DNA of 64,000 bases from Alphaproteobacteria bacterium (lineage in GTDB: Bacteria > Pseudomonadota > Alphaproteobacteria > CAAHEQ01 > UBA3637). The notes below the pieces were generated by a model, which did not search any database, was not told where the DNA came from, and worked only from the letters and a program-made list of their open reading frames with translations. Shown here in pieces: positions 3,561-38,171 of this stretch; position 1 is the stretch's first letter; each line of letters begins with the position of its first letter. The stretch covers positions 38,619 through 102,618 of the forward strand of contig SUUT01000001.1 in NCBI GenBank assembly GCA_015062385.1, given 5' to 3'. The position numbers and the translations under genes are program-made.

Positions 3561-4497
3561 AAAAAAACTTATCGTTTATTTTTGTTTTTTCACTTGTCTC
3601 CTCGGATAAGGTAGAAGATTGGTTGTTTTGCTCCGCCGGTGTTATCCGTTTACCAATCAAAGTGGAAACACTGTCTTTCTCGTTTTTCCCAACCTCCTCG
3701 GATAAGGTAGAAGATTGGTTGTTTTGCTCCGCCGGTATTATCCGTTTACCAATCAAAGTGGAAACACTGTCTTTCTCGTTTTTCCCAACCTCCTCGGATA
3801 AGGTAGAAGATTGGTTGTTTTGCTCCACCGGTGTTATCCGTTTACCAATCAAAGCGGAAGAACCGTCTTTCTCGTTTTTCCCAACCTCCTCGGATAAAGT
3901 AGAAGATTGGTTGTTTTGCTCCGCCGGTATTATCCGTTTACCAATCAAAGCGGAAGAACCGTCTTTCCCATTTTTCCCGATCTCCTCGAATAAGGTAGAA
4001 GATTGGTTGTTTTGCTCCGCCGATATTATCCGTTTACCAATCAAAGTGGAAACACTGTCTTTCTCGTTTTTCCCAACCTCCTCGGATAAGGTAGAAGATG
4101 CAACCGAATCCGACTTCTCTTTACCGGATAACCGCTGTTCATAATCTGCTTGAACGGCACGCAACAAATACAGTGCATCTTTTTTCAACGCCTCAAAAGA
4201 ACGGGTTGCCGTATTAAAACGACCGATAAAAACATAATTATACCCTATGGGGGCTTCGGGAGCAAAAAACAACCGAACAACTTCTCTCATTCTGCGTCTA
4301 ACCTTGTTGCGAACAACAGCCGACCCCAGTTTTTTTGTTGTAGTAAAACCAACCTGCAAAATATCTTTTTGATTTTCAATTACCTGACAAATCAGTCCAG
4401 ATGAAACATATTTTCGTCCGTTATTAGAGGCCAATAAAAAATATTTACGCTTGCGAATACGAGACGGCAATGTAAACTTTTTTTCACTCATAAACAA
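3526..4497 (-). CDS. rnpA: RNase P protein component RnpA with an in-frame C-terminal extension of about 200 aa. The extension is built from 32-aa tandem repeats.
   Basis: The N-terminal 120 aa match RnpA ([17 protein letters not shown]...[18 protein letters not shown]). The ORF then continues in-frame through about 5.2 copies of [32 protein letters not shown]. Confidence 0.75.
3599..4100. repeat. 96-bp tandem direct repeat, about 5.2 copies (starts at 3599, 3695, 3791, 3887, 3983, with a partial copy at 4079). It lies inside the rnpA 3' coding region.
   Basis: Direct reading: the unit tcctcggataaggtagaagattggttgttttgctccgccggtgttatccgtttaccaatcaaagtggaaacactgtctttctcgtttttcccaacc recurs with a few substitutions. 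Confidence 0.9.
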
Positions 4498-7367: not shown

Positions 7368-9659
7368 TTACATTGCCCGTCCGGTTGTACGTGTCGGTTT
7401 TGGGGCTTGATATGTCGGTGTTTGGCCTGAACGTCCCATTGCCAACTGACGTTGTCGTTGCCGATTTGCACTTGCTGCTTCATCATTAGCTTTTTTCTTA
7501 CGGTCAACATCACGTGCCTGTGCATCCAATTCCTCTTTTCGCCGATTATCTACCGGCATACGTGTTCCGTCCGGCATTGTCACAACCGGATTTTTAACCG
7601 TTCCCGAAATTCTAACCTCTGCCAAATCATCCATTTGAACAGATGCCAATGCCTCGGCTTTTTGACGTTCATGTTCATTATCCCGCACATTTTTCGGTGA
7701 TTGTACACCATTTGATCCATGTTGCACGGCATCGGCTTTTGTTTCCCGAACATTATTTGCATTTGATACCTGTTTCGGAGCCTTTACGCCGGTCGATGAT
7801 TGTACAATATTTGGGTTTTGAACATCGGTTGAAGCCTGCAAATCGGCAGTCGGTTGCACACCGCTCGACTGTACATTATTCGGACTTGGCATACCGTTTG
7901 GAACCTGCTCTTTTGTTGAAGACTGCAAACCGGCAGTCGGTTGCACATTGTTCGACTGTACATTATTCGGACTTGATATACCATTTGGTGCTTGCCCTTT
8001 TGTCGAAGCCTGCAAATCGGCAACAGTTTGCTCCAACTCTTGAATCTTTGCCTGTTGAACAGCAACTTGTTCATCCGGAGACATCAATGAAACATTTTCC
8101 ATTTCCTTTGAAGCCGATACGATTTGTTTCATCTCGTCATATGATTGTTTAATACCCGTCATTTCGTAAACATAATTTTTAAATTCGGGCAAATGTGCAT
8201 ATGTTGCTAAATATTGACCGTATTTCTTTCGCTGTGATGATGACATTTTATCAAAATCAACACTTCCATCCGATTTTGTCGGCAATCTTTTTGCAAACTC
8301 TCTTTTCTCCAACAATGCTTTTTCGTATTTGGTATATGGACCTTTTTCCGGAATAATGGCATAATTCGGGTCTTGCAAAATCCATTTTTGTCCGTCACGA
8401 GCCAATTTAGTCGATAAATCCAATTTGCTCAAACCACGATTTCTTAAATTATCGGCAATAAATTCACCCCGTTTTTCAACGGCTTTTTTGGCATCTTCTT
8501 TTTGACTTAAACGTTTTTGTTTTAAATATTCTTTTAAAGAATCCAACGGAACCATTATACCGGCAACAAGAATATCCAATGCAAAATCGGCCATATCTTT
8601 TTCGGATCCGATTTTATCAATATGTTTGGATACCCCTTGCTTATATACCGTTTCCCAATCGGTTTTGCGTTTATCGGCACTACCCAATTTAACACCATCC
8701 ACATAACCGTATTGACCTTTATCTGCAAAAGAATCATTTAATTTACGAATATCTTCTTCTGCTTTATCCGGCTCATTTGTACCAACCTTAAAGGCATCAT
8801 GCAAATCACGCATTTCTTTGGCTTCCTGCGACATCTCAAACGTATTACCGGAACGAATTGTTTCATTTTCCGAATGAGGCGTGCCTGTAAAATCAACTGT
8901 TTTTGTTTCTCCATCCGCCGTATTATCCGTCATCGGTTGCGGGGCAAACCCCGTTTGCATTTCCACATCCGGCGAAAAATTAACATCTGCCGTATTTCCC
9001 GTATCCGTCATATTAATCGTCGTGTCCGGCTGAGACAAATCCAAATGTTCCGTATACAACGGGGTATCCGGTTTAAATTCCACCGTTCCCGTTTCTAAAG
9101 TGCCGGTTTGCGGTTCAACCGCATCCCGATAATCCCGCATACCGGACTTTGTCTCAAACATACCATGTTGTTCATATGTATCCATACGGGCTTCATTTTC
9201 TTGCACAACAGAATTGACCTGTTCTGTTTCTGCCTGCGGTAACGGCCCTTCCTGAAAAGCCTGTGCATAATTTGTCCTCAAATAAGAAACACCGGCTTCT
9301 AATTGCGGTTTTTGTTCCATAAACTGTTCTTCTTCGGCAGAAAGAGCCTGTTCTTGTTTTTCTTTTTTATCTTGCAGATAATGATATGCTTGAACAGCCT
9401 GAACCGTCTGACGAACAAACGTATCCCTTTGAACGGTTGCCTGTACTTGTTGAAACACTTCAGGCTTTGTTTGAACGGACACCTGATTCATCGCCTGTTG
9501 AAGACGCCCCATATCGCCTGTTTGAGCAGCTACCCGTATTTCTCTAATCGGTTGAAGGACCGGCGTTCCGGAAAAAAACTCTTCCATTTCGGCCATTTCG
9601 CCATCCGTTGCCGTTAACAATTTTGCAATTTGTTCTTCACTCATTAAAGATTCAGCCAT
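7368..9659 (-). CDS. Large hypothetical protein (763 aa). It is low-complexity and Q/N/S/T-rich, and contains 31-aa repeats.
   Basis: Long ORF with no recognisable catalytic motif. About 2.4 copies of a 93-bp repeat at about 7838-8040 encode LQASTKGQAPNGISSPNNVQS-like units. Confidence 0.55.
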   Translation of the reverse strand: MAESLMSEEQIAKLLTATDGEMAEMEEFFSGTPVLQPIREIRVAAQTGDMGRLQQAMNQVSVQTKPEVFQQVQATVQRDTFVRQTVQAVQAYHYLQDKKEKQEQALSAEEEQFMEQKPQLEAGVSYLRTNYAQAFQEGPLPQAETEQVNSVVQENEARMDTYEQHGMFETKSGMRDYRDAVEPQTGTLETGTVEFKPDTPLYTEHLDLSQPDTTINMTDTGNTADVNFSPDVEMQTGFAPQPMTDNTADGETKTVDFTGTPHSENETIRSGNTFEMSQEAKEMRDLHDAFKVGTNEPDKAEEDIRKLNDSFADKGQYGYVDGVKLGSADKRKTDWETVYKQGVSKHIDKIGSEKDMADFALDILVAGIMVPLDSLKEYLKQKRLSQKEDAKKAVEKRGEFIADNLRNRGLSKLDLSTKLARDGQKWILQDPNYAIIPEKGPYTKYEKALLEKREFAKRLPTKSDGSVDFDKMSSSQRKKYGQYLATYAHLPEFKNYVYEMTGIKQSYDEMKQIVSASKEMENVSLMSPDEQVAVQQAKIQELEQTVADLQASTKGQAPNGISSPNNVQSNNVQPTAGLQSSTKEQVPNGMPSPNNVQSSGVQPTADLQASTDVQNPNIVQSSTGVKAPKQVSNANNVRETKADAVQHGSNGVQSPKNVRDNEHERQKAEALASVQMDDLAEVRISGTVKNPVVTMPDGTRMPVDNRRKEELDAQARDVDRKKKANDEAASANRQRQRQLAMGRSGQTPTYQAPKPTRTTGRAM

Positions 9660-10491: not shown

Positions 10492-12021
10492 ATGAAAAAA
10501 ATCCCCTATGTTTTTCTTTTAACTTTTCTAATGTTATTTGCTTTGCCGGCTCATGCCGGTTTTTTGGATAGCATCACAGCAACTATTTTCGGTAAAGTGA
10601 TGGAATGGATGGGATTTGGTGCAAACCTTGACGGATATTGTTGGTTTTGTCCTATTTTTACAACTCTTTTCGAAGCAGCCAACCAATTAACAACAGATGT
10701 TATCAATGCAACAAAATCCGAGATTTTAATCTTATTGGGTATCGGGGCAATGTTTTTCATTATTTTCCGTGTCAGCCAAACATTGATTAAACTGCAAGAA
10801 GTTGACTTAATGCAATTTTTAGGGGATTTATTTAAAACACTGGGTCGTGTTCTTATTGCTTCTGCCATCATTGCCGGTACAAATGTGATTATGAACAGTT
10901 TTGTGACACCGGTTTTGGCTTATTCGTTTGATTTTTCTATTGACATTATAAATCATTCCCAAGAAACAGGTTTAATTTCAAATAAAATATGGAGTTCTGC
11001 CGATAGACGACTGGAATATACAGATAATGCCGATGCTCAAATGGCAGCAGCACAAGCATCCAATTTCTTCTCCGGACAGGCATTCTCCCAAGGGTTACAA
11101 CAATCCATGATTGCCATGCTTGCCAAAATCAGTGCCAATTTAGTGGTTGGTATGGCTGTCGGTATTGTACTAATCGTAACGGGCATTTTAGGCAGTTTCG
11201 TATTTCCGGATATCCAATTAACGCTTTCCGGTGCCGTTATTTTTGCCGCATTCAGTATGATATATCTATCGGTACCGTTCCAGTTAATCAACATTGTGGT
11301 TCGTTTGGCGTTTATTACGGCCCTTATGCCGTTTTGGGTTGTATTTTGGGTTTTTAAACCGACAGAAGCATATACCAAAAATGCCTTGAATATGCTTTTA
11401 AACGTTTGTTTAACCATTATGACAACCGGTGTTCTCATGGTTTTGGTCTTTAAATTAATCGGTATGATGTTGCCGGATTCGGATGATATTTTAGCTTCAA
11501 TGGTTCCGGGGTGGGATTTAATTGCAGGTAAAAAGTCTTCCGTGTTCAAGTCCGGCATTTTAATAACCTTGGCTTTGGGTTTCTTGTGTAAAGAATTGAT
11601 TAAAGCTGCTCCGGAATTGGCATCTCGTATCATTCAATCTTATGATGTCAGTATCGGATCCAGCGTTGAAGCAGGTATTATCAAAAGTGCCGGTATCGGA
11701 TTGGGTGGTGGAGCTACGATGCTTGGTCTAGGTACCGTTTTCGGACAAAACAGTTACGATACTCTGGAAAAAGGTGCTCAAAAAATGCGTGGAAACATTG
11801 GCGGTATGCTTGGCATGAAAGGAAAAGATGATACCATTTGGAATATGGGCTCAGGATCATCCAAACCAACAACACCCGGACAATATACCGGCGGTAGTGG
11901 CGGAACCGATAACAAAGGACAACCATCCGGCACATCAACCCCCACACAACCGGCAGGAAACAATACAAATCCAACCGGCAACAACCAAAATCCGCCGGCA
12001 GGAAACAACAAAAACACTTAA
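10492..12021 (+). CDS. Polytopic membrane protein, paralog A of a tandem trio (VirB6/TrbL-like architecture). It has a signal peptide and a Gly/Asn/Thr/Pro-rich C-terminal tail.
   Basis: 509 aa. Signal peptide ...ALPAHA|G, a CWFC motif and at least 6 TM helices. The motif PFWVVFWVFKPTEAYTKNALNMLLN is shared with the next two ORFs. The tail is GNNTNPTGNNQNPPAGNNKNT. Confidence 0.7.
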   Translation: MKKIPYVFLLTFLMLFALPAHAGFLDSITATIFGKVMEWMGFGANLDGYCWFCPIFTTLFEAANQLTTDVINATKSEILILLGIGAMFFIIFRVSQTLIKLQEVDLMQFLGDLFKTLGRVLIASAIIAGTNVIMNSFVTPVLAYSFDFSIDIINHSQETGLISNKIWSSADRRLEYTDNADAQMAAAQASNFFSGQAFSQGLQQSMIAMLAKISANLVVGMAVGIVLIVTGILGSFVFPDIQLTLSGAVIFAAFSMIYLSVPFQLINIVVRLAFITALMPFWVVFWVFKPTEAYTKNALNMLLNVCLTIMTTGVLMVLVFKLIGMMLPDSDDILASMVPGWDLIAGKKSSVFKSGILITLALGFLCKELIKAAPELASRIIQSYDVSIGSSVEAGIIKSAGIGLGGGATMLGLGTVFGQNSYDTLEKGAQKMRGNIGGMLGMKGKDDTIWNMGSGSSKPTTPGQYTGGSGGTDNKGQPSGTSTPTQPAGNNTNPTGNNQNPPAGNNKNT

Positions 12022-12051
12022 AATAACAGACAAAAAACAAGGGAGAACAAC

Positions 12052-13377
12052 ATGAATACTTTTAAACGAATTTGTTTTCAAGTAAAAACCCTTTGGAAAT
12101 GGGGGCTATGTTCTCTTCTGTTTTTTGTAAGCGGTTGTTCCAATTCCATTGACCCGAAAGAAGTAGAAAATTTATTCCGCATCAAAAAAGAAAATTGTTG
12201 GCCGTGTACCATGTATAAAATTACGTGGGAAGCTATCGGCGATTTAATCATTGAGATGTTTCCTATTTTATGCAAAACGGCTCTGGATATTTTAGGAATC
12301 GGATTATTATTTTGGATTACATTTACTGTCGGAAAAATGATTTCGGCATTAAAAGAACCAAACTTAAAAGACTTTTTAACCAATATGGCAACCGTTTTAT
12401 TTAAAGCGTTTGTCGTTGCCGCTGTTTTATATAACTCTCAATTTGTTTATGACTTATTAAGCGTTATTGTTACACCTACGTTAGAAGCATTTATACAAAT
12501 CAGCCGAAACATTATGTTCGCAGACCCAAGCATTGCCAAAAACTTTGCCGCTGCCGAAACATACACGAATATTGCATCTGATTCGACTATTTTCACAACA
12601 AAAGTCGGCAATCAGTTGCAGGATTTAATTTATCGGGTCTATTTGGGATTCCATTCAGGTATCGGTTTAGGGGCAAAAATGATGGCCACACTGGATTTTA
12701 CAACACAAATGTTGGGTCTTGTGGTTATCTTTATTTTCTTTTACCTGATGCTTATGTTCCCGTTATTGTTTATTGAAGGATTTATGCTTTTGGGAGCCGT
12801 TGTCTTTTTCTTCCCATTCTTTTTGGTAGCATATGTCTTCCCTTACACAAAAGGATATTTAACCAGTGCTTGGAAAGTTTTATTTGTCAGTATGGCACAA
12901 ATTGTTTTAACATGTGTTTATATGGCTGTTATGTTAACAGTCATTCGTTCTTACGCTGATGACACATTTTCCATCGGAGCCCAGTTAACGGACCCAACAT
13001 TAATACTGGGAATGAAAAACATGCAACAGCAAGGATTGGCATTTTTTGCCTTGGTATTTGTAATGTTTAAAATGACAAGTGATATCCCGAGTATCTCGGC
13101 AAAATTAGTCAGCGACTTTAACCGTTCCGCTGTATCAAGAGGAATTCAACAGGTCGCCAATATCGGTAAAAGCTTGGGATTATTTGCTGCCGGCATGGCC
13201 ATAAGCGGAACAGGTATTGGGGCCGGAGTTGGAAAAGCTATGATGGCAAAAGCTACAAAAGATGCCGGAAAAACCATGAACGATGCTTTCTCACCAAACG
13301 GCGGAGAAAACACCGGAGACGGTATCAGCGATGCTCAAAAAGCATCTACACAAGTTGTACAGAAACAACCAAAGTAA
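12052..13377 (+). CDS. Polytopic membrane protein, paralog B of the trio. It has a lipoprotein-type signal (VSGC).
   Basis: 441 aa with CWPC and PFFLVAYVFPYTKGYLTSAWKVLFV motifs. There is an RBS, and the gap from ORF A is only 30 bp. Confidence 0.7.
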   Translation: MNTFKRICFQVKTLWKWGLCSLLFFVSGCSNSIDPKEVENLFRIKKENCWPCTMYKITWEAIGDLIIEMFPILCKTALDILGIGLLFWITFTVGKMISALKEPNLKDFLTNMATVLFKAFVVAAVLYNSQFVYDLLSVIVTPTLEAFIQISRNIMFADPSIAKNFAAAETYTNIASDSTIFTTKVGNQLQDLIYRVYLGFHSGIGLGAKMMATLDFTTQMLGLVVIFIFFYLMLMFPLLFIEGFMLLGAVVFFFPFFLVAYVFPYTKGYLTSAWKVLFVSMAQIVLTCVYMAVMLTVIRSYADDTFSIGAQLTDPTLILGMKNMQQQGLAFFALVFVMFKMTSDIPSISAKLVSDFNRSAVSRGIQQVANIGKSLGLFAAGMAISGTGIGAGVGKAMMAKATKDAGKTMNDAFSPNGGENTGDGISDAQKASTQVVQKQPK

Positions 13378-13389
13378 AGGGGAAAAAAC

Positions 13390-15501
13390 ATGAAACGGAT
13401 AATCAAATTTCTTTTACTTTTGGCAACAGCTTTAACCACGGTATTTATTGCACACATAAATCCGTTTAAGGGTGCGTTATTTCCGATTTGTTGTGCTCTC
13501 TCTATTATGATCATATTCGGAACACTCGGTTATTTTACTCTGATTAAAAAACAAAAAATCCTATTCACAATTCCGTTAATATTAAGTATTTGCTGTATGA
13601 CCATTGTTTTACCTGCTTTTGCAGACAACGCCGGAAATGTTGATGCTGCCACAAGTGAGGAATGGCGGAATAAAATATCTGCTGCCGGTGATGCCGTTGA
13701 CAGCGATTCCGAATTTAAAAAATATTATCAAACCGACGACGGTAAAAATGAAGATTATGTTGCAGGATATGAACCGACAACCTTTAATCCGGACACGGCA
13801 GATGCGGCAATCAAAGCCGAGGGTTACTGTCGTGAGCTGAAAATTCCAGATCGAAAATCCGATTCATTGCACGAAAAATGCAAAAAAATCGAACTATATA
13901 ATAATATGGTTGCTAAAATTAAAAATCTAATGGGAACCAGTTGCAGTCCCATTACATCCATCATTAAAAATCTGGTTAATAAGAATGAATGTTGGCCCTG
14001 TGATGTGACAGCATTGGTTTTGGTGTCCATTCAAAAAGTAACTGCTGCCGCATATGAGGTTTTACGCCCAGCCGCCTTATCTCTATTAGGCGTTTTAACA
14101 ATGTTGTGGTTGGCTTATGTCACATTAGCCTTTTTCGGAAAATTCGGTTTCGCCCGTATTTCGGAATATTTAACAAACGTATTAAACAAAATTGTCTTGG
14201 TATTGGTTATTTCCGCCATATTAACAAACAATCAAACAATTTCATCCTTGTATCGATTTACAATTTCACCCGTGGTTGCTTATTCTGCCTCATTAGCACA
14301 GGAATTCTCCGAAAGCGGACGACGTGCCGCTAAAAATGCCGGAAGTGTTTTGGATATGGCACAAAAAATTATGTCTCTTGGGGCTTCCACTGAATGTTCT
14401 TACTGTAAAAACAGAGGAGACACCTCATCAAATACGCTCTTTTTGGATTCGGTTGCAACGAACAGTATTTTATGTATGATATGTACGGTTTATCATCAGG
14501 TAGCCCCGATGATTGCACTGGGACAAGGCATTACCTGTTTTGCCGGAGCGGCCTCTGTTTCACAATCAGATCAATCGGCATTAAGTGCCGCAACCGCACA
14601 TGGTGTAACCCGATTAGGGGCCGGTATCGTCGGCATATTTTTAATCATTATGTTTTCACTTATTATGCTGTTAATTGCATTTCATGTCTTATCATCCATT
14701 TTACAACTGGGATTTGTGCTTATTTTACTACCGCTATGGCTCATTGCCTTTGTATTTAAAGGAACACGAGAATATCTTAAAAACGCATGGGCATTATTAA
14801 TGCATGCCGTTATCTCATTAGTAGCCATTTCCATTTCAACCGCTTTGATTATCATTGGATTTAGTGATTTATTATCCGGCAAATTAGCATTGGCCTTAGG
14901 TTGGGCAATGGTTAAAGGTTCTCCGAATGATATTTTAAGTACATTTACGGGAGAATTAGATCAAACGGCACAAGCTGCCGGTGAAGGTGGCAGTATGTTC
15001 TCCGGTTTAACGGATTCACTTATTCAATATGGCATTGACTCTTTAATCGGTGTTTCCCCGATGCAAGCTGTCTTTTTATTAGTTGCTTTTGCCTTTTTAT
15101 CCGTCAGCATGATAAATGCAGCTCCTGAGTTAGTTGAACGTTTATTCAACTTATGGCTTGGAAAATCCATTGATGCCCAAGGCATGATGATGGATAGTGC
15201 CCGTACAGCCATGAAAGGGGTCGGCGTTATGAGTAGCAGTGCTAAATTATTAGCCGGTGCCGGGGCTTTGGGATTGGGTTACATGAATTCAAAAACCAGT
15301 CAAAAGAAGGTTGAAAATGCTCAAGCAGCCCGCATTCAGAAATACGAGGAAGAACAAAAACAACGTCAAGCAGCTAAAGAACAAACGGGACAACAAACAC
15401 CTACAAATACCACCGGCGGAACAACCGGCAACAGTAGTGGGAATGCTAACGAAAACGATAGCGGTAGCGGAAATAACACATTCCCGACCGGAACAAATTA
15501 A
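13390..15501 (+). CDS. Polytopic membrane protein, paralog C of the trio. It has a periplasmic segment of about 150 aa and a Thr/Gly/Asn-rich C-terminal tail.
   Basis: 703 aa with ECWPC and PLWLIAFVFKGTREYLKNAWALLMH motifs. The tail is QQTPTNTTGGTTGNSSGNANENDSGSGNNTF. Confidence 0.7.
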   Translation: MKRIIKFLLLLATALTTVFIAHINPFKGALFPICCALSIMIIFGTLGYFTLIKKQKILFTIPLILSICCMTIVLPAFADNAGNVDAATSEEWRNKISAAGDAVDSDSEFKKYYQTDDGKNEDYVAGYEPTTFNPDTADAAIKAEGYCRELKIPDRKSDSLHEKCKKIELYNNMVAKIKNLMGTSCSPITSIIKNLVNKNECWPCDVTALVLVSIQKVTAAAYEVLRPAALSLLGVLTMLWLAYVTLAFFGKFGFARISEYLTNVLNKIVLVLVISAILTNNQTISSLYRFTISPVVAYSASLAQEFSESGRRAAKNAGSVLDMAQKIMSLGASTECSYCKNRGDTSSNTLFLDSVATNSILCMICTVYHQVAPMIALGQGITCFAGAASVSQSDQSALSAATAHGVTRLGAGIVGIFLIIMFSLIMLLIAFHVLSSILQLGFVLILLPLWLIAFVFKGTREYLKNAWALLMHAVISLVAISISTALIIIGFSDLLSGKLALALGWAMVKGSPNDILSTFTGELDQTAQAAGEGGSMFSGLTDSLIQYGIDSLIGVSPMQAVFLLVAFAFLSVSMINAAPELVERLFNLWLGKSIDAQGMMMDSARTAMKGVGVMSSSAKLLAGAGALGLGYMNSKTSQKKVENAQAARIQKYEEEQKQRQAAKEQTGQQTPTNTTGGTTGNSSGNANENDSGSGNNTFPTGTN

Positions 15502-15691: not shown

Positions 15692-16090
15692 TTAAGGCAT
15701 ACATAAGACGCTCTGGCTGTTGGTTCGTGTGAGCACGAGCACACTACCATCATTGAGATAAACACGATAGGCATCACTGCTACCTGAGGTTATGTTCAAC
15801 CACATCCCGCCACTGCCTATCGAACTCAAATTCGGACATTGTTTTGTCATATCACACTTTGTTTCATCACTGCACTCACATTCACTCAATGGAACTAATG
15901 TCATCCCAATGGCATCACACCATGCATGGGCACTCCACCAATTCATACCAACCTTTGATTTACAATACGTTCCGTGATCATTTCCTTTCAATTCCGTACC
16001 ATAGCCATTTGCACAATCTGCTGCCTGAACACTTATTGGTTGAAGCATGATCAATCCGATAAGTCCCATAATCAACGTTTTTCTTTTCAT
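15692..16090 (-). CDS. Secreted Cys-rich small protein, possibly a C-type-lectin-like fold
   Basis: Signal peptide MKRKTLIMGLIGLIMLQPISVQA. W-x-x-A-x-x-x-C-x-x-x-G-x-x-L (WWSAHAWCDAIGMTL) resembles the CTLD signature. Same strand as the pilin-like gene, 35 bp downstream of it. Confidence 0.5.
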   Translation of the reverse strand: MKRKTLIMGLIGLIMLQPISVQAADCANGYGTELKGNDHGTYCKSKVGMNWWSAHAWCDAIGMTLVPLSECECSDETKCDMTKQCPNLSSIGSGGMWLNITSGSSDAYRVYLNDGSVLVLTRTNSQSVLCMP

Positions 16091-16124: not shown

Positions 16125-17507
16125 TTATTCTGCCGGTTTCGGGCACGTTGTGTTCTTTTCATCCCACAACGCACACGCTCCATAGACTTTTCCCGTTATT
16201 CCCGCTCCCGCTGCCGTGCAATTTATGTCTTTCCACTGTAAATGGCAGTACATTTTTGGCGGACATCTCTTTTCTAACTTAAATATTCTATTATTATCTA
16301 CTACTACTTCAAAATATGGATGCGTATAAAAAACCGGTAATCTTTGACATTTACCATACAGTGTTCCTGTCGCTCCGGCACTGGCTGTCGGTATTGGCTC
16401 TCCCTTTTTCCACGACGATTTCGTCCAATTTAACGCACAATATTTTTCCGGACTGCTACACTTTTTTTGGGGTGTTACCGTGACTATATTTGCACTTACT
16501 TCTTCACGATACGCTATATTCGGATCCCCAGGCATTATCAATCGTTGACATTTTCCGTATAATGTGCCCGTTGTTCCCGCACTTGCCGTTGGTACCGTTT
16601 CTCCTTTTTTCCATGACGATTTCGTCCAATTTAAAAAACAATATTGATTTGGGACTGTACATTGTGTAGCATGCTTTACCTCTCCTGTAGAACTAACTGT
16701 ATAGGAACAATCTGTTTCGTATGTTTTTTCTCCGATACTTTTTACCTCTTGAACAGAATAACTACAATCCGTAGTGTACCCAAAATCTGTATCCGCCTCA
16801 TAAAATGTATAGATACACGCCCCGTCACTCGGAATACATTCGCCGGCTTTTGTTTCACTGCAAAATTCATCATACCGACAACACCATCCGATTTCTTCTG
16901 CCTCTATCTTGCACGATGTTATCTTTTCATCCGCTCTATCGGCACATAAATCGATACACCCGTCTTCGTCATCGTTCAGCCGTTCGTCAAACCCACATGC
17001 CTGACAAATTTCTTCATCTTCATCACAATATATCCCCTCTTGATTCGGACATTCATTGTTGTTGGCACACGGTATTAACTGTTCTGCCCCGTTAAAGGAA
17101 ACAACAACTTCCTGTGTCTCCGCCGAACAGTCCATCGGCGTATTGTCCATTGTATAAAGCGTGAGTTCGCCGGCATCTTGTGCCAATCTGTTTAAATGAA
17201 TACAGATGTTCTTTTCAACTGCTTCTATCAACACAAAATCATTTTGAGCTTTATCACGTCGAACATAATATGTATAGGGGCTCGGTAATTCTTCTCTAAA
17301 TTCTTCCCATTCATACGGAACACCATCCGTTTGTGACACAAGGTTAATTTGTATCAGCTTGATATCTTTGTAAACCTGATTCGCTTGATATTTATTAAAT
17401 GCATAGCGGTATCCCCCGACTGCGACTATCGTTAATACCCCGATAACCGCTAATACGCCGAGCATTTCTATCATACTTCGGCCTTGTTCATTCAGTTTGA
17501 TTCGCAT
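16125..17507 (-). CDS. Prepilin-leader (class III signal peptide) protein with a Cys-rich repeat ectodomain. The probable start is Met6 of the track ORF.
   Basis: MRIKLNEQGRSMIEMLGVLAVIGVL has Gly at -1 and Glu at +5. The C-terminal 380 aa are Cys-rich, with 67-aa repeats YC(F/A)LNWTKSSWKKGE.PTASAG.TGTLYGKCQRL. The matching DNA repeat is 201 bp (16341/16542). Confidence 0.7.
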   Translation of the reverse strand: MRIKLNEQGRSMIEMLGVLAVIGVLTIVAVGGYRYAFNKYQANQVYKDIKLIQINLVSQTDGVPYEWEEFREELPSPYTYYVRRDKAQNDFVLIEAVEKNICIHLNRLAQDAGELTLYTMDNTPMDCSAETQEVVVSFNGAEQLIPCANNNECPNQEGIYCDEDEEICQACGFDERLNDDEDGCIDLCADRADEKITSCKIEAEEIGWCCRYDEFCSETKAGECIPSDGACIYTFYEADTDFGYTTDCSYSVQEVKSIGEKTYETDCSYTVSSTGEVKHATQCTVPNQYCFLNWTKSSWKKGETVPTASAGTTGTLYGKCQRLIMPGDPNIAYREEVSANIVTVTPQKKCSSPEKYCALNWTKSSWKKGEPIPTASAGATGTLYGKCQRLPVFYTHPYFEVVVDNNRIFKLEKRCPPKMYCHLQWKDINCTAAGAGITGKVYGACALWDEKNTTCPKPAE

Positions 17508-17548
17508 ATTCCCCTCTCTCATAGTAACATTGCTTTATAAGAGAGTAT

Positions 17549-17699
17549 AAAAAAAGGGACCTTTTTTTCCCTATTCAAAACGCAAAAATCGGATTTTTAC
17601 AAAAATGAAAGATTATTGTTTGAGTTGAATAAGTTAATTAAAATTAAAAAAAATGCTAAAAAGTGAAAAAAAGTGTTGCATTTATACCTCCCTTTTTTT
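17549..17699 (-). promoter_or_regulatory. Conserved 150-bp upstream element, copy 1 of 4. It has complementary termini (AAAAAGGGAC ... CCTCCCTTTTT, imperfect here).
   Basis: About 85% identical to 18589-18735, 37941-38088 and 60897-61047. It lies 41 bp upstream of the pilin-like start codon. A TATACT hexamer abuts its proximal end on the gene strand. Confidence 0.7.
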
Positions 17700-17743
17700 A
17701 CGGATACGCCATAGCTCTCCACTAGCCGGTACAAGAGATATTA

Positions 17744-17901: not shown

Positions 17902-18528
17902 TTAATGTTCATTTCCAATCTGACTATGAACATTTACATCTCTTCGTGATGTTTCATCTATATGAACACTTTGACCATTCTCTTTCAATACAGATTTTAA
18001 ATCAACATCTGTTTTCTGATTTTCATTTGCAGAGACAACCTCATTTATATCTGCCGAATTTTCTTTTACAGAAACCTCTTTAACAACACGTGCTCCTTCC
18101 CGTTTTACGAAACTGGGCATACGAGCACTCCAAAACCCGCCTCTAATTTCCTCTGTCATTTTACCGTCTAAACTTTCAAGTTCTTTTTTCATACCACGTA
18201 CTTTTATAAAATCCGGTATAGAAAGTAGCTCACCCGCAAATCTGAGTATTCCCCATTTCCTCACTTCATATTCAAGCGTAACACGATCTAATGGCGTATA
18301 ACCACGACTATCCTGTCCATTTATATCTGCCCCTTTTTCCACCAGTTTACGTAGTGTATCTTTGTCTGTATGAATAGCAGCAACATGTACGAGCGGTTCT
18401 CCCTCTTTGTTTGGTTTATTAATATCTTCTTTAGAAAGAGTCGGTAATAAAGTATCAATTTTATTCGTATCATTATCCATAATTGCTTTGGTTAATGCTT
18501 CAATTGTTTTATTTGTATTGTTACTCAT
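17902..18528 (-). CDS. Ankyrin-repeat protein (208 aa)
   Basis: EGEPLVHVAAIHTDKDTLRKLVEKGADINGQDSRGYTPLD is a canonical ANK repeat. There is no signal peptide. Confidence 0.8.
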   Translation of the reverse strand: MSNNTNKTIEALTKAIMDNDTNKIDTLLPTLSKEDINKPNKEGEPLVHVAAIHTDKDTLRKLVEKGADINGQDSRGYTPLDRVTLEYEVRKWGILRFAGELLSIPDFIKVRGMKKELESLDGKMTEEIRGGFWSARMPSFVKREGARVVKEVSVKENSADINEVVSANENQKTDVDLKSVLKENGQSVHIDETSRRDVNVHSQIGNEH

Positions 18529-18588
18529 ATTTTATACTCCTTTTGCATATTCATACAAATGTTTCAATCTATATAATTTATATTATAC

Positions 18589-18735
18589 AAAAAGGTACGT
18601 TTTTTTCCCTATTCGAATCGGAAAAATCGATTTTTTGAAAAAACAAAAGATTATTGTTTTATTTGAATAATTTAGTCGCAATTAAAAAAAATTCAAAAAA
18701 GTGAAAAAAATTGTTGCAAAAAAACGTACCTTTTT
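18589..18735 (-). promoter_or_regulatory. Conserved 150-bp upstream element, copy 2 of 4. Its termini AAAAAGGTAC / GTACCTTTTT are perfectly complementary and carry compensatory substitutions.
   Basis: 60 bp upstream of the ankyrin start. On the gene strand TGTATAAT lies immediately adjacent to the element. Confidence 0.7.
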
Positions 18736-18813
18736 GTATAGATAGGAACCTATTTACCTTTCAAAAAAAAGCTCTTTATATAAATCTCCATACGTTAACG
18801 CATATGGAATTAT

Positions 18814-36786: not shown

Positions 36787-37896
36787 TTATAATTTTGTTC
36801 GACAATCATCTCCGCCCCAACCGGATATGCATTCACACCACGTTTCGCCGTTGATTTCTCGTAAAATACCGGTACTCTCATAATCATAAAGCTTTCCACA
36901 GGGTTTGGCATTTTCATCTCGTTCATCGCAATACTGTCCCGTATATCCATCATAGCACATACATTGTCCGTATCCATATGGTGTTCCGTTCCCATTACAT
37001 TCCGCTTTCTCAGATGTTTTATATTCACAGAAATTCCCCCAATAACCTCCTCCACAAGAACATCCATTTCCTTTTGCAGACCCATTTTGCCATCCATAAC
37101 CGCCCGTCTCATTACAAACATCAGTTATCCCATCGCCAAATTCACAATGTTCACCCCAATAGCCTCTTTTACATAATTCACAAACACAACGATTGTATTT
37201 ATCTACGTATACCAGTGAACCATGTCCATTACAATACTTTTCATTTGTACAATCTGAATCTGTAAAGCAATTACCGGCAGCATCCTGTGTTTTATAGCCC
37301 AATGAGGTATCACACCGATTACATAATTTTCCTGTATATCCTGTATCACAGATACAAGAATCCCCCTCTAATCTGCCATGCATTCCGCAATTTAATAATG
37401 TCGGTGTATCTTCTTCCGGCGTTTCTTCTTCCGTATTTCCGGAATCATCCGTATATTCAACGCTTTCGCCCGTCAAATCATTTTTAATCGTATAAATAAT
37501 TGCCCCACATATTTCTGCTGTTTCTCCCTCTACACGAATCGTATCCACCAATTTCATTTCTACCTGCTTTAATTGATTACAATCTTCTTTCGGCACATTT
37601 AATACCGATACTTCAAAATAATCGGCATATCCAACTGCCTGGTAGGCATATCCCATTCTTAACGTTGCATTTTCTTCACTTAATATTTCGCCTTCACTCA
37701 TCTCTTCCAATCTCTGAATTTTTAAACCCGTATCATAGGCAATAATATTTAACTCGTTGACGATTTCATTCACACGATATTTCATCATGCCGAATTTATA
37801 TCCCATAATACCGCCAACACTTAATACACCGATAACGGCTAAAACACCTAACATTTCTACCATACTTCGACCAGTTTCGTTGATTTTAGTTTGCAT
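36787..37896 (-). CDS. Prepilin-leader protein with a tandem EGF-like ectodomain
   Basis: MQTKINETGRSMVEMLGVLAVIGVLSVGG leader. At least 5 CxCxxGYxGxxC motifs follow (CICDTGYTGKLC, CSCGGGYWGNFC, CMCYDGYTGQYC, CECISGWGGDDC). Confidence 0.7.
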   Translation of the reverse strand: MQTKINETGRSMVEMLGVLAVIGVLSVGGIMGYKFGMMKYRVNEIVNELNIIAYDTGLKIQRLEEMSEGEILSEENATLRMGYAYQAVGYADYFEVSVLNVPKEDCNQLKQVEMKLVDTIRVEGETAEICGAIIYTIKNDLTGESVEYTDDSGNTEEETPEEDTPTLLNCGMHGRLEGDSCICDTGYTGKLCNRCDTSLGYKTQDAAGNCFTDSDCTNEKYCNGHGSLVYVDKYNRCVCELCKRGYWGEHCEFGDGITDVCNETGGYGWQNGSAKGNGCSCGGGYWGNFCEYKTSEKAECNGNGTPYGYGQCMCYDGYTGQYCDERDENAKPCGKLYDYESTGILREINGETWCECISGWGGDDCRTKL

Positions 37897-37940
37897 ATTC
37901 TTCTCCCTTTTTACAGTTGCTCATATATACATACTGTAAT

Positions 37941-38088
37941 AAAAGGGACCTTTTTTTCCCGCTTCAAATGACGAAAATCGGATTTTTGAGAAAACAAAAG
38001 ATTATTGTTTTAGTTGAATTATTTAGTTAAAATCAAAAAAAATCCCAAAATGTGAAAAAAAGTGTTGCAATGATACGTCCCTTTTTTT
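37941..38088 (-). promoter_or_regulatory. Conserved 150-bp upstream element, copy 3 of 4 (termini AAAAGGGAC / GTCCCTTTTTTT)
   Basis: 44 bp upstream of the start at 37896. Confidence 0.7.
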
Positions 38089-38171
38089 ACGGATAATAGC
38101 CGGTATAATCAGCAAATAAAATTAAAAACGGATAAATATTTTCTCGAATATGCCTCTATTTTTTTATCAAT

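Follow-up and report, generated by a model that had tools for sequence, protein, structure and literature searches.

Candidate modular type IVb-like pilins with cysteine-rich repeat heads, and a putative invertible switch upstream of their genes, in uncultured gut Alphaproteobacteria

CofB of enterotoxigenic Escherichia coli (ETEC) and TcpB of Vibrio cholerae are minor pilins of about 500 residues with extra domains at the tip. In the R64 shufflon (PilV) and the Moraxella Piv Q/I pilin switch, coding segments are inverted, which swaps C-termini in a single expression locus. More broadly, 'modular pilins', in which a pilin module is combined with extra C-terminal modules, were the subject of a survey of more than 1,200 proteins (Raynaud et al. 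2021, PMC8179133). In Streptococcus sanguinis, for instance, PilB has a vWA module and PilC a lectin module (PMC8179133), and the term 'EGF' (epidermal growth factor) is absent from the main text of that paper. At the level of gene expression, the master invertases of Bacteroides fragilis act on many dispersed promoters (PMC4747536). Here we analyse a stretch of 64,000 nucleotides (the window) of contig SUUT01000001.1, from the alphaproteobacterial assembly GCA_015062385.1, and describe in it three genes, p1, p2 and p3. The reading that we somewhat favour is that they are modular type IVb-like pilins with rigid disulfide-bonded repeat heads, each under an invertible switch.

The three genes, each with a conserved ATG start, and their N-terminal modules are as follows.

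16125-17507, minus strand: p1, modular pilin-like gene, 460 aa
36787-37896, minus strand: p2, modular pilin-like gene, 369 aa
58761-60851, minus strand: p3, modular pilin-like gene, 696 aa
17103-17507, minus strand: pilin module of p1, about residues 1-135
37477-37896, minus strand: pilin module of p2
60402-60851, minus strand: pilin module of p3

A first-pass annotation of the window had already reported three minus-strand genes with a near-identical N-terminus, and both the coordinates and the motif, M..K.NE.G|RSM(V/I)EMLG.LAVIGVL, were recovered by the listing of open reading frames (ORFs) and by a pattern scan. A degenerate DNA pattern for GRSM(V/I)EM matches p1, p2 and p3 only in the window (0.02 matches expected by chance), and a six-frame motif scan found no fourth member there. 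Each ATG is preceded by a GGAG-type ribosome-binding site. The ORFs of p1 and p3 could be extended upstream, to 17522 and 60950, respectively; the orthologues and the ribosome-binding sites favour 17507 and 60851. Over their first 140 residues or so the three proteins align at 34-36% identity to p1, with residues 1-33 near-identical, and beyond this point they share nothing.

The leader has Gly at -1, Arg at +1 and Glu at +5 relative to the predicted prepilin peptidase site in all three proteins, just as the first-pass annotation had read it. In alignments of 19 and of 83 relatives, G9 (-1), R10, S11, M12 and E14 (+5) are invariant; Glu+5 is required for filament assembly in the pilins that have been studied. 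Leaders are charged, rich in K, N, E and Q, and vary from 6 to about 31 residues, the longest being those of P0217 and P0218 (P-numbers denote related proteins and L-numbers related loci). Two cysteines of the head are kept in at least 90% of members (C102/C127 in p1, C106/C130 in p2, C110/C138 in p3), and this pair would form a disulfide closing the pilin head. When the family profile was compared with the PDB sequences, the matches were to type IV pilins only, namely TcpA (E 0.023), PilS, CofA and geopilin, and were weak but consistent. The AlphaFold model of p2 residues 1-165 (pLDDT, the predicted local confidence, 81) shows residues 8-62 as one uninterrupted helix, followed by a four-stranded sheet, which is the type IV pilin arrangement of an extended N-terminal helix on a 4-stranded antiparallel sheet. 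A Foldseek search with the pilin module gave no significant match, and some relatives carry precomputed Pfam matches to Bundlin or PilS. Conservation, profile and model thus support the prepilin-like leader that had been proposed, followed by a complete pilin module. We consider the N-terminal part very likely to be a true pilin module; judged from sequence and model, its signal and fold are type IVb-like, and the leader would be cleaved. As the N-terminus consists of a class III (prepilin) signal plus a complete pilin module, p1, p2 and p3 fit the published concept of modular pilins (PMC8179133). The survey on which this concept is based required the N-methyl motif IPR012902, which our family misses because of the Arg at +1.

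This Arg is one of the points that weigh against the assignment. The Pfam N_methyl model scores below threshold (E 0.12, 12.4 bits for a cutoff of 21.2), as does TIGR02532 (E 0.23), evidently because the residue at +1 is Arg. It is invariant at the position where Phe (type IVa) or Met, Leu or Val (type IVb) would be expected, and to our knowledge Arg at +1 has not been reported for substrates of prepilin peptidases. The sub-threshold scores and the absence of Phe, Met or Leu at +1 would also suit an ordinary Sec signal peptide, cut by signal peptidase I, in which case the proteins would simply be secreted Cys-rich proteins. Such an explanation is most improbable, as thousands of proteins share the G-R-S-M-x-E motif of the n-region without change, the hydrophobic stretch continues unbroken into a 55-residue helix with no AxA-type site, and the modelled fold resembles that of type IVb pilins.

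Behind the pilin modules, the three proteins carry Cys-rich ectodomains with the following repeats.

16128-17102, minus strand: Cys-rich ectodomain of p1, with 67-aa LNWTKSSW...YGKCQ repeats
16461-16661 and 16260-16460, minus strand: 67-aa repeats of p1, with a degenerate third at about 16143-16265
36802-37389, minus strand: five EGF-like repeats of p2, with CxCxxG(Y/W)xGxxC motifs
58779-60338, minus strand: 9-10 CP.EKP...G.C..C modules of p3, of about 51 aa
59029-60035, minus strand: 462-bp DNA tandem repeat of p3 (Tandem Repeats Finder, 2.2 copies, 88% identity)

These agree with the features listed at first pass (five EGF motifs, 67-aa repeats, and about nine CP.EKP modules in 462-bp repeats). 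The numbers of cysteines are even (28, 26 and 70 in p1, p2 and p3, respectively), the repeat period of p1 is 67 residues (Cys283 to Cys350), and each 462-bp repeat of p3 encodes three of the modules of about 51 residues. The description of the ectodomains as eukaryote-like holds for the EGF repeats of p2 but not for p1 and p3, which have no Pfam, PDB or fold match and whose homologues all belong to the same bacterial clade. Likewise, of the EGF, laminin-EGF and TNFR profiles to which the first-pass annotation had pointed, p2 passes Pfam EGF_Teneurin (32.8 bits for a cutoff of 24.3), with EGF_2 at 22.0 bits (cutoff 22.1) and EGF_TEN (E 3.5e-10) under its cutoff, whereas p1 and p3 have no match to any of them at E < 1. 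The model of the p1 ectodomain is of low confidence (pLDDT 58) and without fold match. Only 15 clusters of homologues were obtained for it, all from gut Alphaproteobacteria of the same clade, and 79 homologues for the p3 ectodomain. The ectodomains of p1 and p3 would represent clade-specific folds.

The GRSM leader is present in at least 36 of the p3-ectodomain homologues, and an ordinary Sec signal peptide stands at the start of others (for example P0141, P0164, P0170, P0175, P0188 and P0194). In P0196-P0202, modules of the p3 type stand behind a different anchor, NETG|KTF(V/M)EI(I/V)R followed by a hydrophobic stretch, which may be another variant of the prepilin signal. Fusions of the pilin module to EGF repeats recur in P0215-P0219, P0228 and P0231 (346-714 aa, 3-8 EGF motifs), and the fusion in L028 has eight such motifs. 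The presence in p2 of a domain that scores above threshold, the occurrence of the p3 ectodomain outside pilins and the lack of relationship between the ectodomains (p2 and p3, for example, have no detectable similarity, BLASTP E 0.64) are what modular pilins would show. The suggestion that the internal repeats allow size variation is also supported, by the spread in length of the pilin-EGF relatives and by P0124 and P0128, two p1 orthologues that are longer by one 67-aa repeat and one TDCSY unit.

What had been taken for a family of three is in fact one of thousands of members. A search with the N-terminal domain returned 2,780 clusters at 90% identity, those with a name being almost all 'MAG: Alphaproteobacteria bacterium' (MAG, metagenome-assembled genome), and a search with full-length p2 returned 4,254 representatives at 50% identity (347 at E <= 1e-10). 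Nearly all members returned are either unnamed or labelled 'hypothetical', and the exact p2 sequence has no match in public assemblies. A scan of one genome per GTDB species found the family in at least 584 places, almost all in uncultured Alphaproteobacteria from the ruminant, rabbit or human gut. Among the 80 GTDB loci listed, from which the following counts are drawn, there are up to nine or more loci per genome and 130 ORFs with the leader, 115 of them complete. Forty-nine of the complete ORFs have 300 residues or more (up to 1,064) and contain 14-120 cysteines, with the exception of that of L049, which has 2; one partial ORF reaches 1,642 residues. The remaining complete ORFs are pilin-sized (119-270 aa, including small pilins of 119-150 aa), and some of them stand in tandem arrays or divergent pairs. 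These small members are likely to be major subunits, so that p1, p2 and p3 are part of an extensive set in which likely major subunits stand beside long proteins.

Two arrangements of family genes deserve mention. In L011 (6600-15800) four family genes (421, 895, 369 and 993 aa) follow each other in tandem, each behind its own copy, in forward orientation, of the upstream cassette described below. Small pilin genes occur as divergent, near-identical pairs around one intergenic region in L040 (9340-9790, 143 and 147 aa) and in L077 (17335-17800, 119 and 130 aa). The intergenic region of L040 holds one element bounded by inverted repeats (arms AAAAAAACGTAC / GTACGTTTTTTT), lying between the two divergent genes, and this layout would suit toggling between two major pilins.

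The machinery that a pilus would need, which the first-pass annotation had named as the thing to look for, was found only in part. We searched the window and 1.19 Mb of related loci, which cover the DNA near pilin genes, with a motif scan and with tblastn using E. coli HofB, HofC, GspD, GspE, GspF and GspO. A related, family-bearing genome has a Peptidase_A24 gene (234 aa, Pfam E 1.6e-14) at L045 2939-3640, 7 kb away from a family gene, whereas the assembly ATPase, the platform protein and the secretin were found neither in the window nor in the related loci. The window has no prepilin peptidase either, and Pfam scans of about 54 of its larger ORFs revealed no pilus machinery. The gene in L045 stands alone amid the genes for cytidylate kinase, RodZ and RF-1; its product has no Pfam match to the N-terminal methyltransferase domain, an absence that would fit a non-methylated N-terminus that does not start with Phe. 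A canonical pilin, MRKNIG|FTLAEILIVIG, is encoded at L069 13766-14146; as the GRSM family is present in the same genome, these organisms have two pilin classes.

In the window p1, p2 and p3 are spaced 20 kb apart amid housekeeping genes, and in the relatives too the family genes are scattered in this manner, not clustered with a dedicated assembly operon as type IVb pilin genes are. Such dispersal of many paralogues per genome, unlinked to any machinery, together with the missing ATPase, platform protein and secretin and with the p3-type ectodomains behind plain Sec signals, may suggest that all the pilin-like N-terminus does is to anchor the proteins in the membrane or to tag them for export. 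They would then be bitopic proteins of the inner membrane and periplasm, or be released by a route similar to type II secretion, and would never polymerise. Large expansions of proteins with prepilin signals are known in other phyla, such as the DUF1559 proteins of Planctomycetes and those of Elusimicrobia. We regard this alternative as rather unlikely, given that the whole pilin head is conserved (the sheet and the Cys pair) and not just the hydrophobic helix, that Glu+5 is invariant, and that the family has members of 119-150 residues which resemble major subunits, some in tandem arrays. As for the modular pilins themselves, we give about even chances to their display on a filament; ligand binding and adhesion are functions that we infer entirely for the ectodomains, which also tells against our reading.

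A further feature, absent from the first-pass account, lies directly upstream of the genes. The 200 or so nucleotides before p1, p2 and p3 have a mean column identity of 84%, which is greater than that of the coding sequence, and the conservation exceeds by far that of the coding sequence past about codon 45. It corresponds to a cassette of about 155 bp bounded by inverted repeats of 12-14 bp (TAAAAAAAGGGAC ... GTCCCTTTTTTTA) with 127-129 nt between them, present four times in the window.

17545-17703, minus strand: cassette upstream of p1 (proximal arm GTCCCTTTTTTTA in 17545-17560, interior 17561-17687, distal arm TAAAAAAAGGGA in 17688-17703)
37934-38092, minus strand: cassette upstream of p2 (arms in 37934-37949 and 38077-38092, interior 37950-38076)
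60893-61051, minus strand: cassette upstream of p3 (arms in 60893-60908 and 61036-61051, interior 60909-61035)
18583-18741, minus strand: fourth cassette, upstream of the ankyrin-repeat gene at 17902-18528 (arms ACAAAAAGGTAC / GTACCTTTTTGT)

The four copies are about 81-87% identical to each other, and copies across genomes and metagenomes are 82-91% identical. Across 18 copies, a 10-nt core, AAAAAGG(G/T)AC, is identical in both arms and the outer positions tolerate mismatches. The arms co-vary at position -2 (15 copies G/G, 3 T/T and none mixed), and the arms of the ankyrin-gene cassette carry changes that match on both sides. The gene-proximal site, GAAAAAAAGG-TC-CCTTTTTTTA, is a palindrome around a 2-bp centre in which the co-varying base lies, a structure that we take to resemble the hix/gix sites of Hin-family serine invertases. 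In more distant relatives there are analogous segments with different arms (for example arms of 21-22 nt, 134-139 nt apart, in L019 and L052). More generally, segments flanked by inverted repeats were found upstream of 33 of the 61 long family genes, compared with 43 of 623 control ORFs (Fisher test, p = 5e-19, in which the paralogues are not independent), and upstream of 12 of the 58 short family genes. Since a cassette also precedes the ankyrin-repeat gene (minus strand), whose product has no signal peptide, the putative switch regulon would extend beyond the pilin-like genes.

In one locus, L012, the interior of the cassette is reverse-complemented exactly between the arms. The L012 cassette is about 86% identical to that of p2, and the flip leaves unaltered the gene-proximal flank, the ribosome-binding site and the start codon, which nearly match their counterparts in p2. 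The locus comes from the same MAG as seven forward copies and as the four-gene array of L011. The flip is not an assembly ambiguity, because the arms are far shorter than assembly k-mers. An inverted-repeat segment is therefore seen in both orientations between unchanged flanks, as in an inverton, the two states coming from different genomes. We did not count a second apparent flip (L027 versus L009 and L032), as its sites read as direct repeats and the similarity is only about 75%. All six further orthologue contigs are in the forward orientation, and a metagenome scan with the pattern of the cassette interior gave two contigs only, both forward, which added little to the tally of 18 forward copies and one flipped.

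This tally bears on whether the cassette moves at all. Of the 19 copies, 18 share one orientation with respect to their gene, and the single flipped copy belongs to a different genome and not to one population with the forward ones; the window yielded no recombinase gene; the arms are short and rich in A/T; and an unrelated gene, that of the ankyrin-repeat protein, has the cassette as well. All this would be natural for a fixed, shared promoter or operator, or for a repeat with terminal inverted repeats akin to a miniature inverted-repeat transposable element, with the flip in L012 as a one-off rearrangement. We find such a fixed cassette possible and yet doubtful. In L012 the breakpoints lie precisely within the arms and leave the flanks intact, and repeats of 12-14 bp are too short for an assembly artefact. 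The arms change together in three copies, which a shared binding site would not require, and analogous segments with different arms lie upstream of family genes in many other species, one such element being that between the two divergent small pilin genes of L040.

The arm covariation is also compatible with Watson-Crick pairing, and the folding energy is mildly better than that of shuffled sequences (z = -2.3), as might be expected if the inverted repeat were not a DNA element but closed a riboregulator or attenuator structure in the RNA of the 5' leader. This is very improbable: the minimum-free-energy fold skips the long-range pairing, there is no Rfam match, and an RNA element would not occur reverse-complemented in place, as it does in L012. 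Moreover, the conserved region extends no more than about 7 nt beyond the distal arm, which leaves no conserved promoter upstream from which an RNA element would be transcribed. We hold that the cassette is probably an invertible switch, whose inversion would be reversible.

Scans with the sigma-70 consensus gave no consistent promoter in either orientation and do not assign ON and OFF, a further result that does not favour the switch. After a flip, an invariant TTGCA(A/T) would stand exactly 17 nt away from a TAnAnT that is conserved in the fixed flank, a hint that OFF is the commoner state, and the arm may separate the -35 from the -10 element. Outside the window, small serine recombinases (Resolvase + HTH_7, about 190 aa) are encoded in three family loci, L059, L072 and L088, and that of L059 directly adjoins a family gene in divergent orientation. 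Tyrosine recombinases are encoded in L019 and L052. The one in L019 is beside a family gene but is XerC/D-like and adjoins priA, and is probably a housekeeping enzyme.

As a separate observation, a 5' unit made of the cassette, the ribosome-binding site and the first 40 or so codons is near-identical between paralogues and across genomes, and the rest of each gene is unrelated. L012 (1320-1680) shares only this unit with p2. The pattern suggests that the 5' ends undergo recombination or gene conversion, or that heads are shuffled behind a fixed expression unit.

If modular pilins under invertible switches are indeed what these genes encode, they would form a type IVb-like class restricted to uncultured gut Alphaproteobacteria of low G+C content, and each protein would be inserted in the inner membrane, its leader would be removed by an A24 prepilin peptidase, and its Cys-rich part would be oxidised in the periplasm. 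Through its pilin module the protein would then join a type IV filament, and the analogy of CofB, TcpB and S. sanguinis PilB makes that of a tip or low-abundance subunit its most likely role; the filament would present one of many alternative ligand-binding or antigenic heads. Each gene would be controlled separately by the invertible cassette of about 155 bp directly upstream, with the core of about 10 bp, AAAAAGG(G/T)AC, as the recombination site of a recombinase encoded elsewhere in the genome and acting in trans. One might speculate further that the G|RSMxEML family supplies all subunits of a type IVb-like filament not yet described, with major pilins and dozens of alternative tip pilins whose disulfide-rich heads are EGF-like or of novel folds. 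Every tip gene would have a hix-like switch run by a global serine invertase, and single cells would show different combinations of heads. This would amount to a protein-adhesin analogue of the phase variation of Bacteroides capsules, reaching at least one ankyrin-repeat protein as well. We put this forward as a tentative idea.

The surroundings of the genes are those of an ordinary Gram-negative chromosome of about 37% G+C, encoding YidC, the RNase P protein, an LptA-like protein, KdsD, the heptose pathway, Obg, RNase J and UppS in addition to the ankyrin-repeat gene; no tRNA gene and no Rfam match was found in the window. One neighbour may be functionally related to p1.

15692-16090, minus strand: small Cys-rich protein gene, 132 aa, Sec signal, 34 nt downstream of p1

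This gene has no Pfam or NCBIfam match. It is kept beside the p1 orthologues in L093 and L094, and this conserved pairing makes its product a possible partner or operon mate of p1. CofJ is a secreted partner of CofB, and by analogy the 132-residue protein could be a secreted partner of the p1 head. Three consecutive large genes (509, 441 and 703 aa) at 10492-15501 on the plus strand directly adjoin p1, the third encoding a polytopic membrane protein with a Q/T/N-rich tail. They were suspected of being machinery, and none of the three has a Pfam or NCBIfam match. Tandem repeats are also found elsewhere in the window, with a coding repeat of 96 bp at 3598-4099 (5.2 copies, 93%) within the ORF that carries the RNase P protein domain, and a repeat of 87 bp (2.2 copies) at 7828-8022 within an unannotated ORF of 763 aa. 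In a related alphaproteobacterial contig, the gene at L006 18278-19354 has a precomputed Pfam match to mTERF, the mitochondrial transcription termination factor family, and Sel1 and ankyrin repeats were seen near this gene or in the window.

Modular pilins and invertons are already known kinds of element. What we consider new is a G|RSMxE class of signal with Arg at +1, to which current models are blind, the size of the paralogue library within a single uncultured gut clade, the EGF-like and unassigned Cys-rich heads on pilins, and the dedicated hix-like switch before individual pilin genes. Our searches of the literature found no description of the G|RSMxE family, of the other three points or of invertons that control type IV pilins in gut Alphaproteobacteria. 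If the reading is true, the main variable surface apparatus of these uncultured and almost unannotated bacteria would be identified, with heads drawn from a large, fast-evolving library of disulfide-rich repeats and switched by DNA inversion. Arg would join the +1 residues of prepilin signals, as a variant that current profile models miss, and EGF-like and new Cys-rich folds would join the catalogue of modular pilins. In addition, AAAAAGG(G/T)AC arms about 127 nt apart would define a switch that can be scored for ON and OFF in existing gut metagenomes.

Compared with the described systems, the genes have most in common with the modular pilins, in which the extra C-terminal modules are likewise not specific to pili and are proposed to act at the tip in adhesion (PMC8179133). 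They differ from those published in having long arrays of disulfide-bonded repeats and many paralogues per genome, and in lying outside pilus operons. The closest, if weak, matches in profile and fold are the type IVb pilins (TcpA, CofA of ETEC, PilS of Salmonella Typhi and BfpA), which also have a variable +1 residue, leaders that can be long and a disulfide-closed C-terminal region. However, each known type IVb system is encoded in a compact operon that includes an ATPase, a peptidase and a secretin of its own and has a single major and a single minor pilin, whereas here we find dozens of paralogues scattered over the chromosome, Arg at +1 and smaller heads (about 100 residues after the helix). 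The cassettes resemble invertible promoters such as those of B. fragilis (Mpi, Tsr19, Tsr0667) and E. coli fimS (with FimB and FimE) in being short inverted-repeat segments directly upstream of genes for surface structures and, as in B. fragilis, in occupying many dispersed loci where the recombinase is not necessarily adjacent (PMC4747536). They are set apart by their alphaproteobacterial host and by their targets, type IV pilin-like genes and an ankyrin gene. Finally, in the R64 shufflon and the Moraxella Piv system, site-specific inversion also diversifies what a type IV pilus presents, but in the present case every complete gene seems to possess a small non-coding switch of its own.

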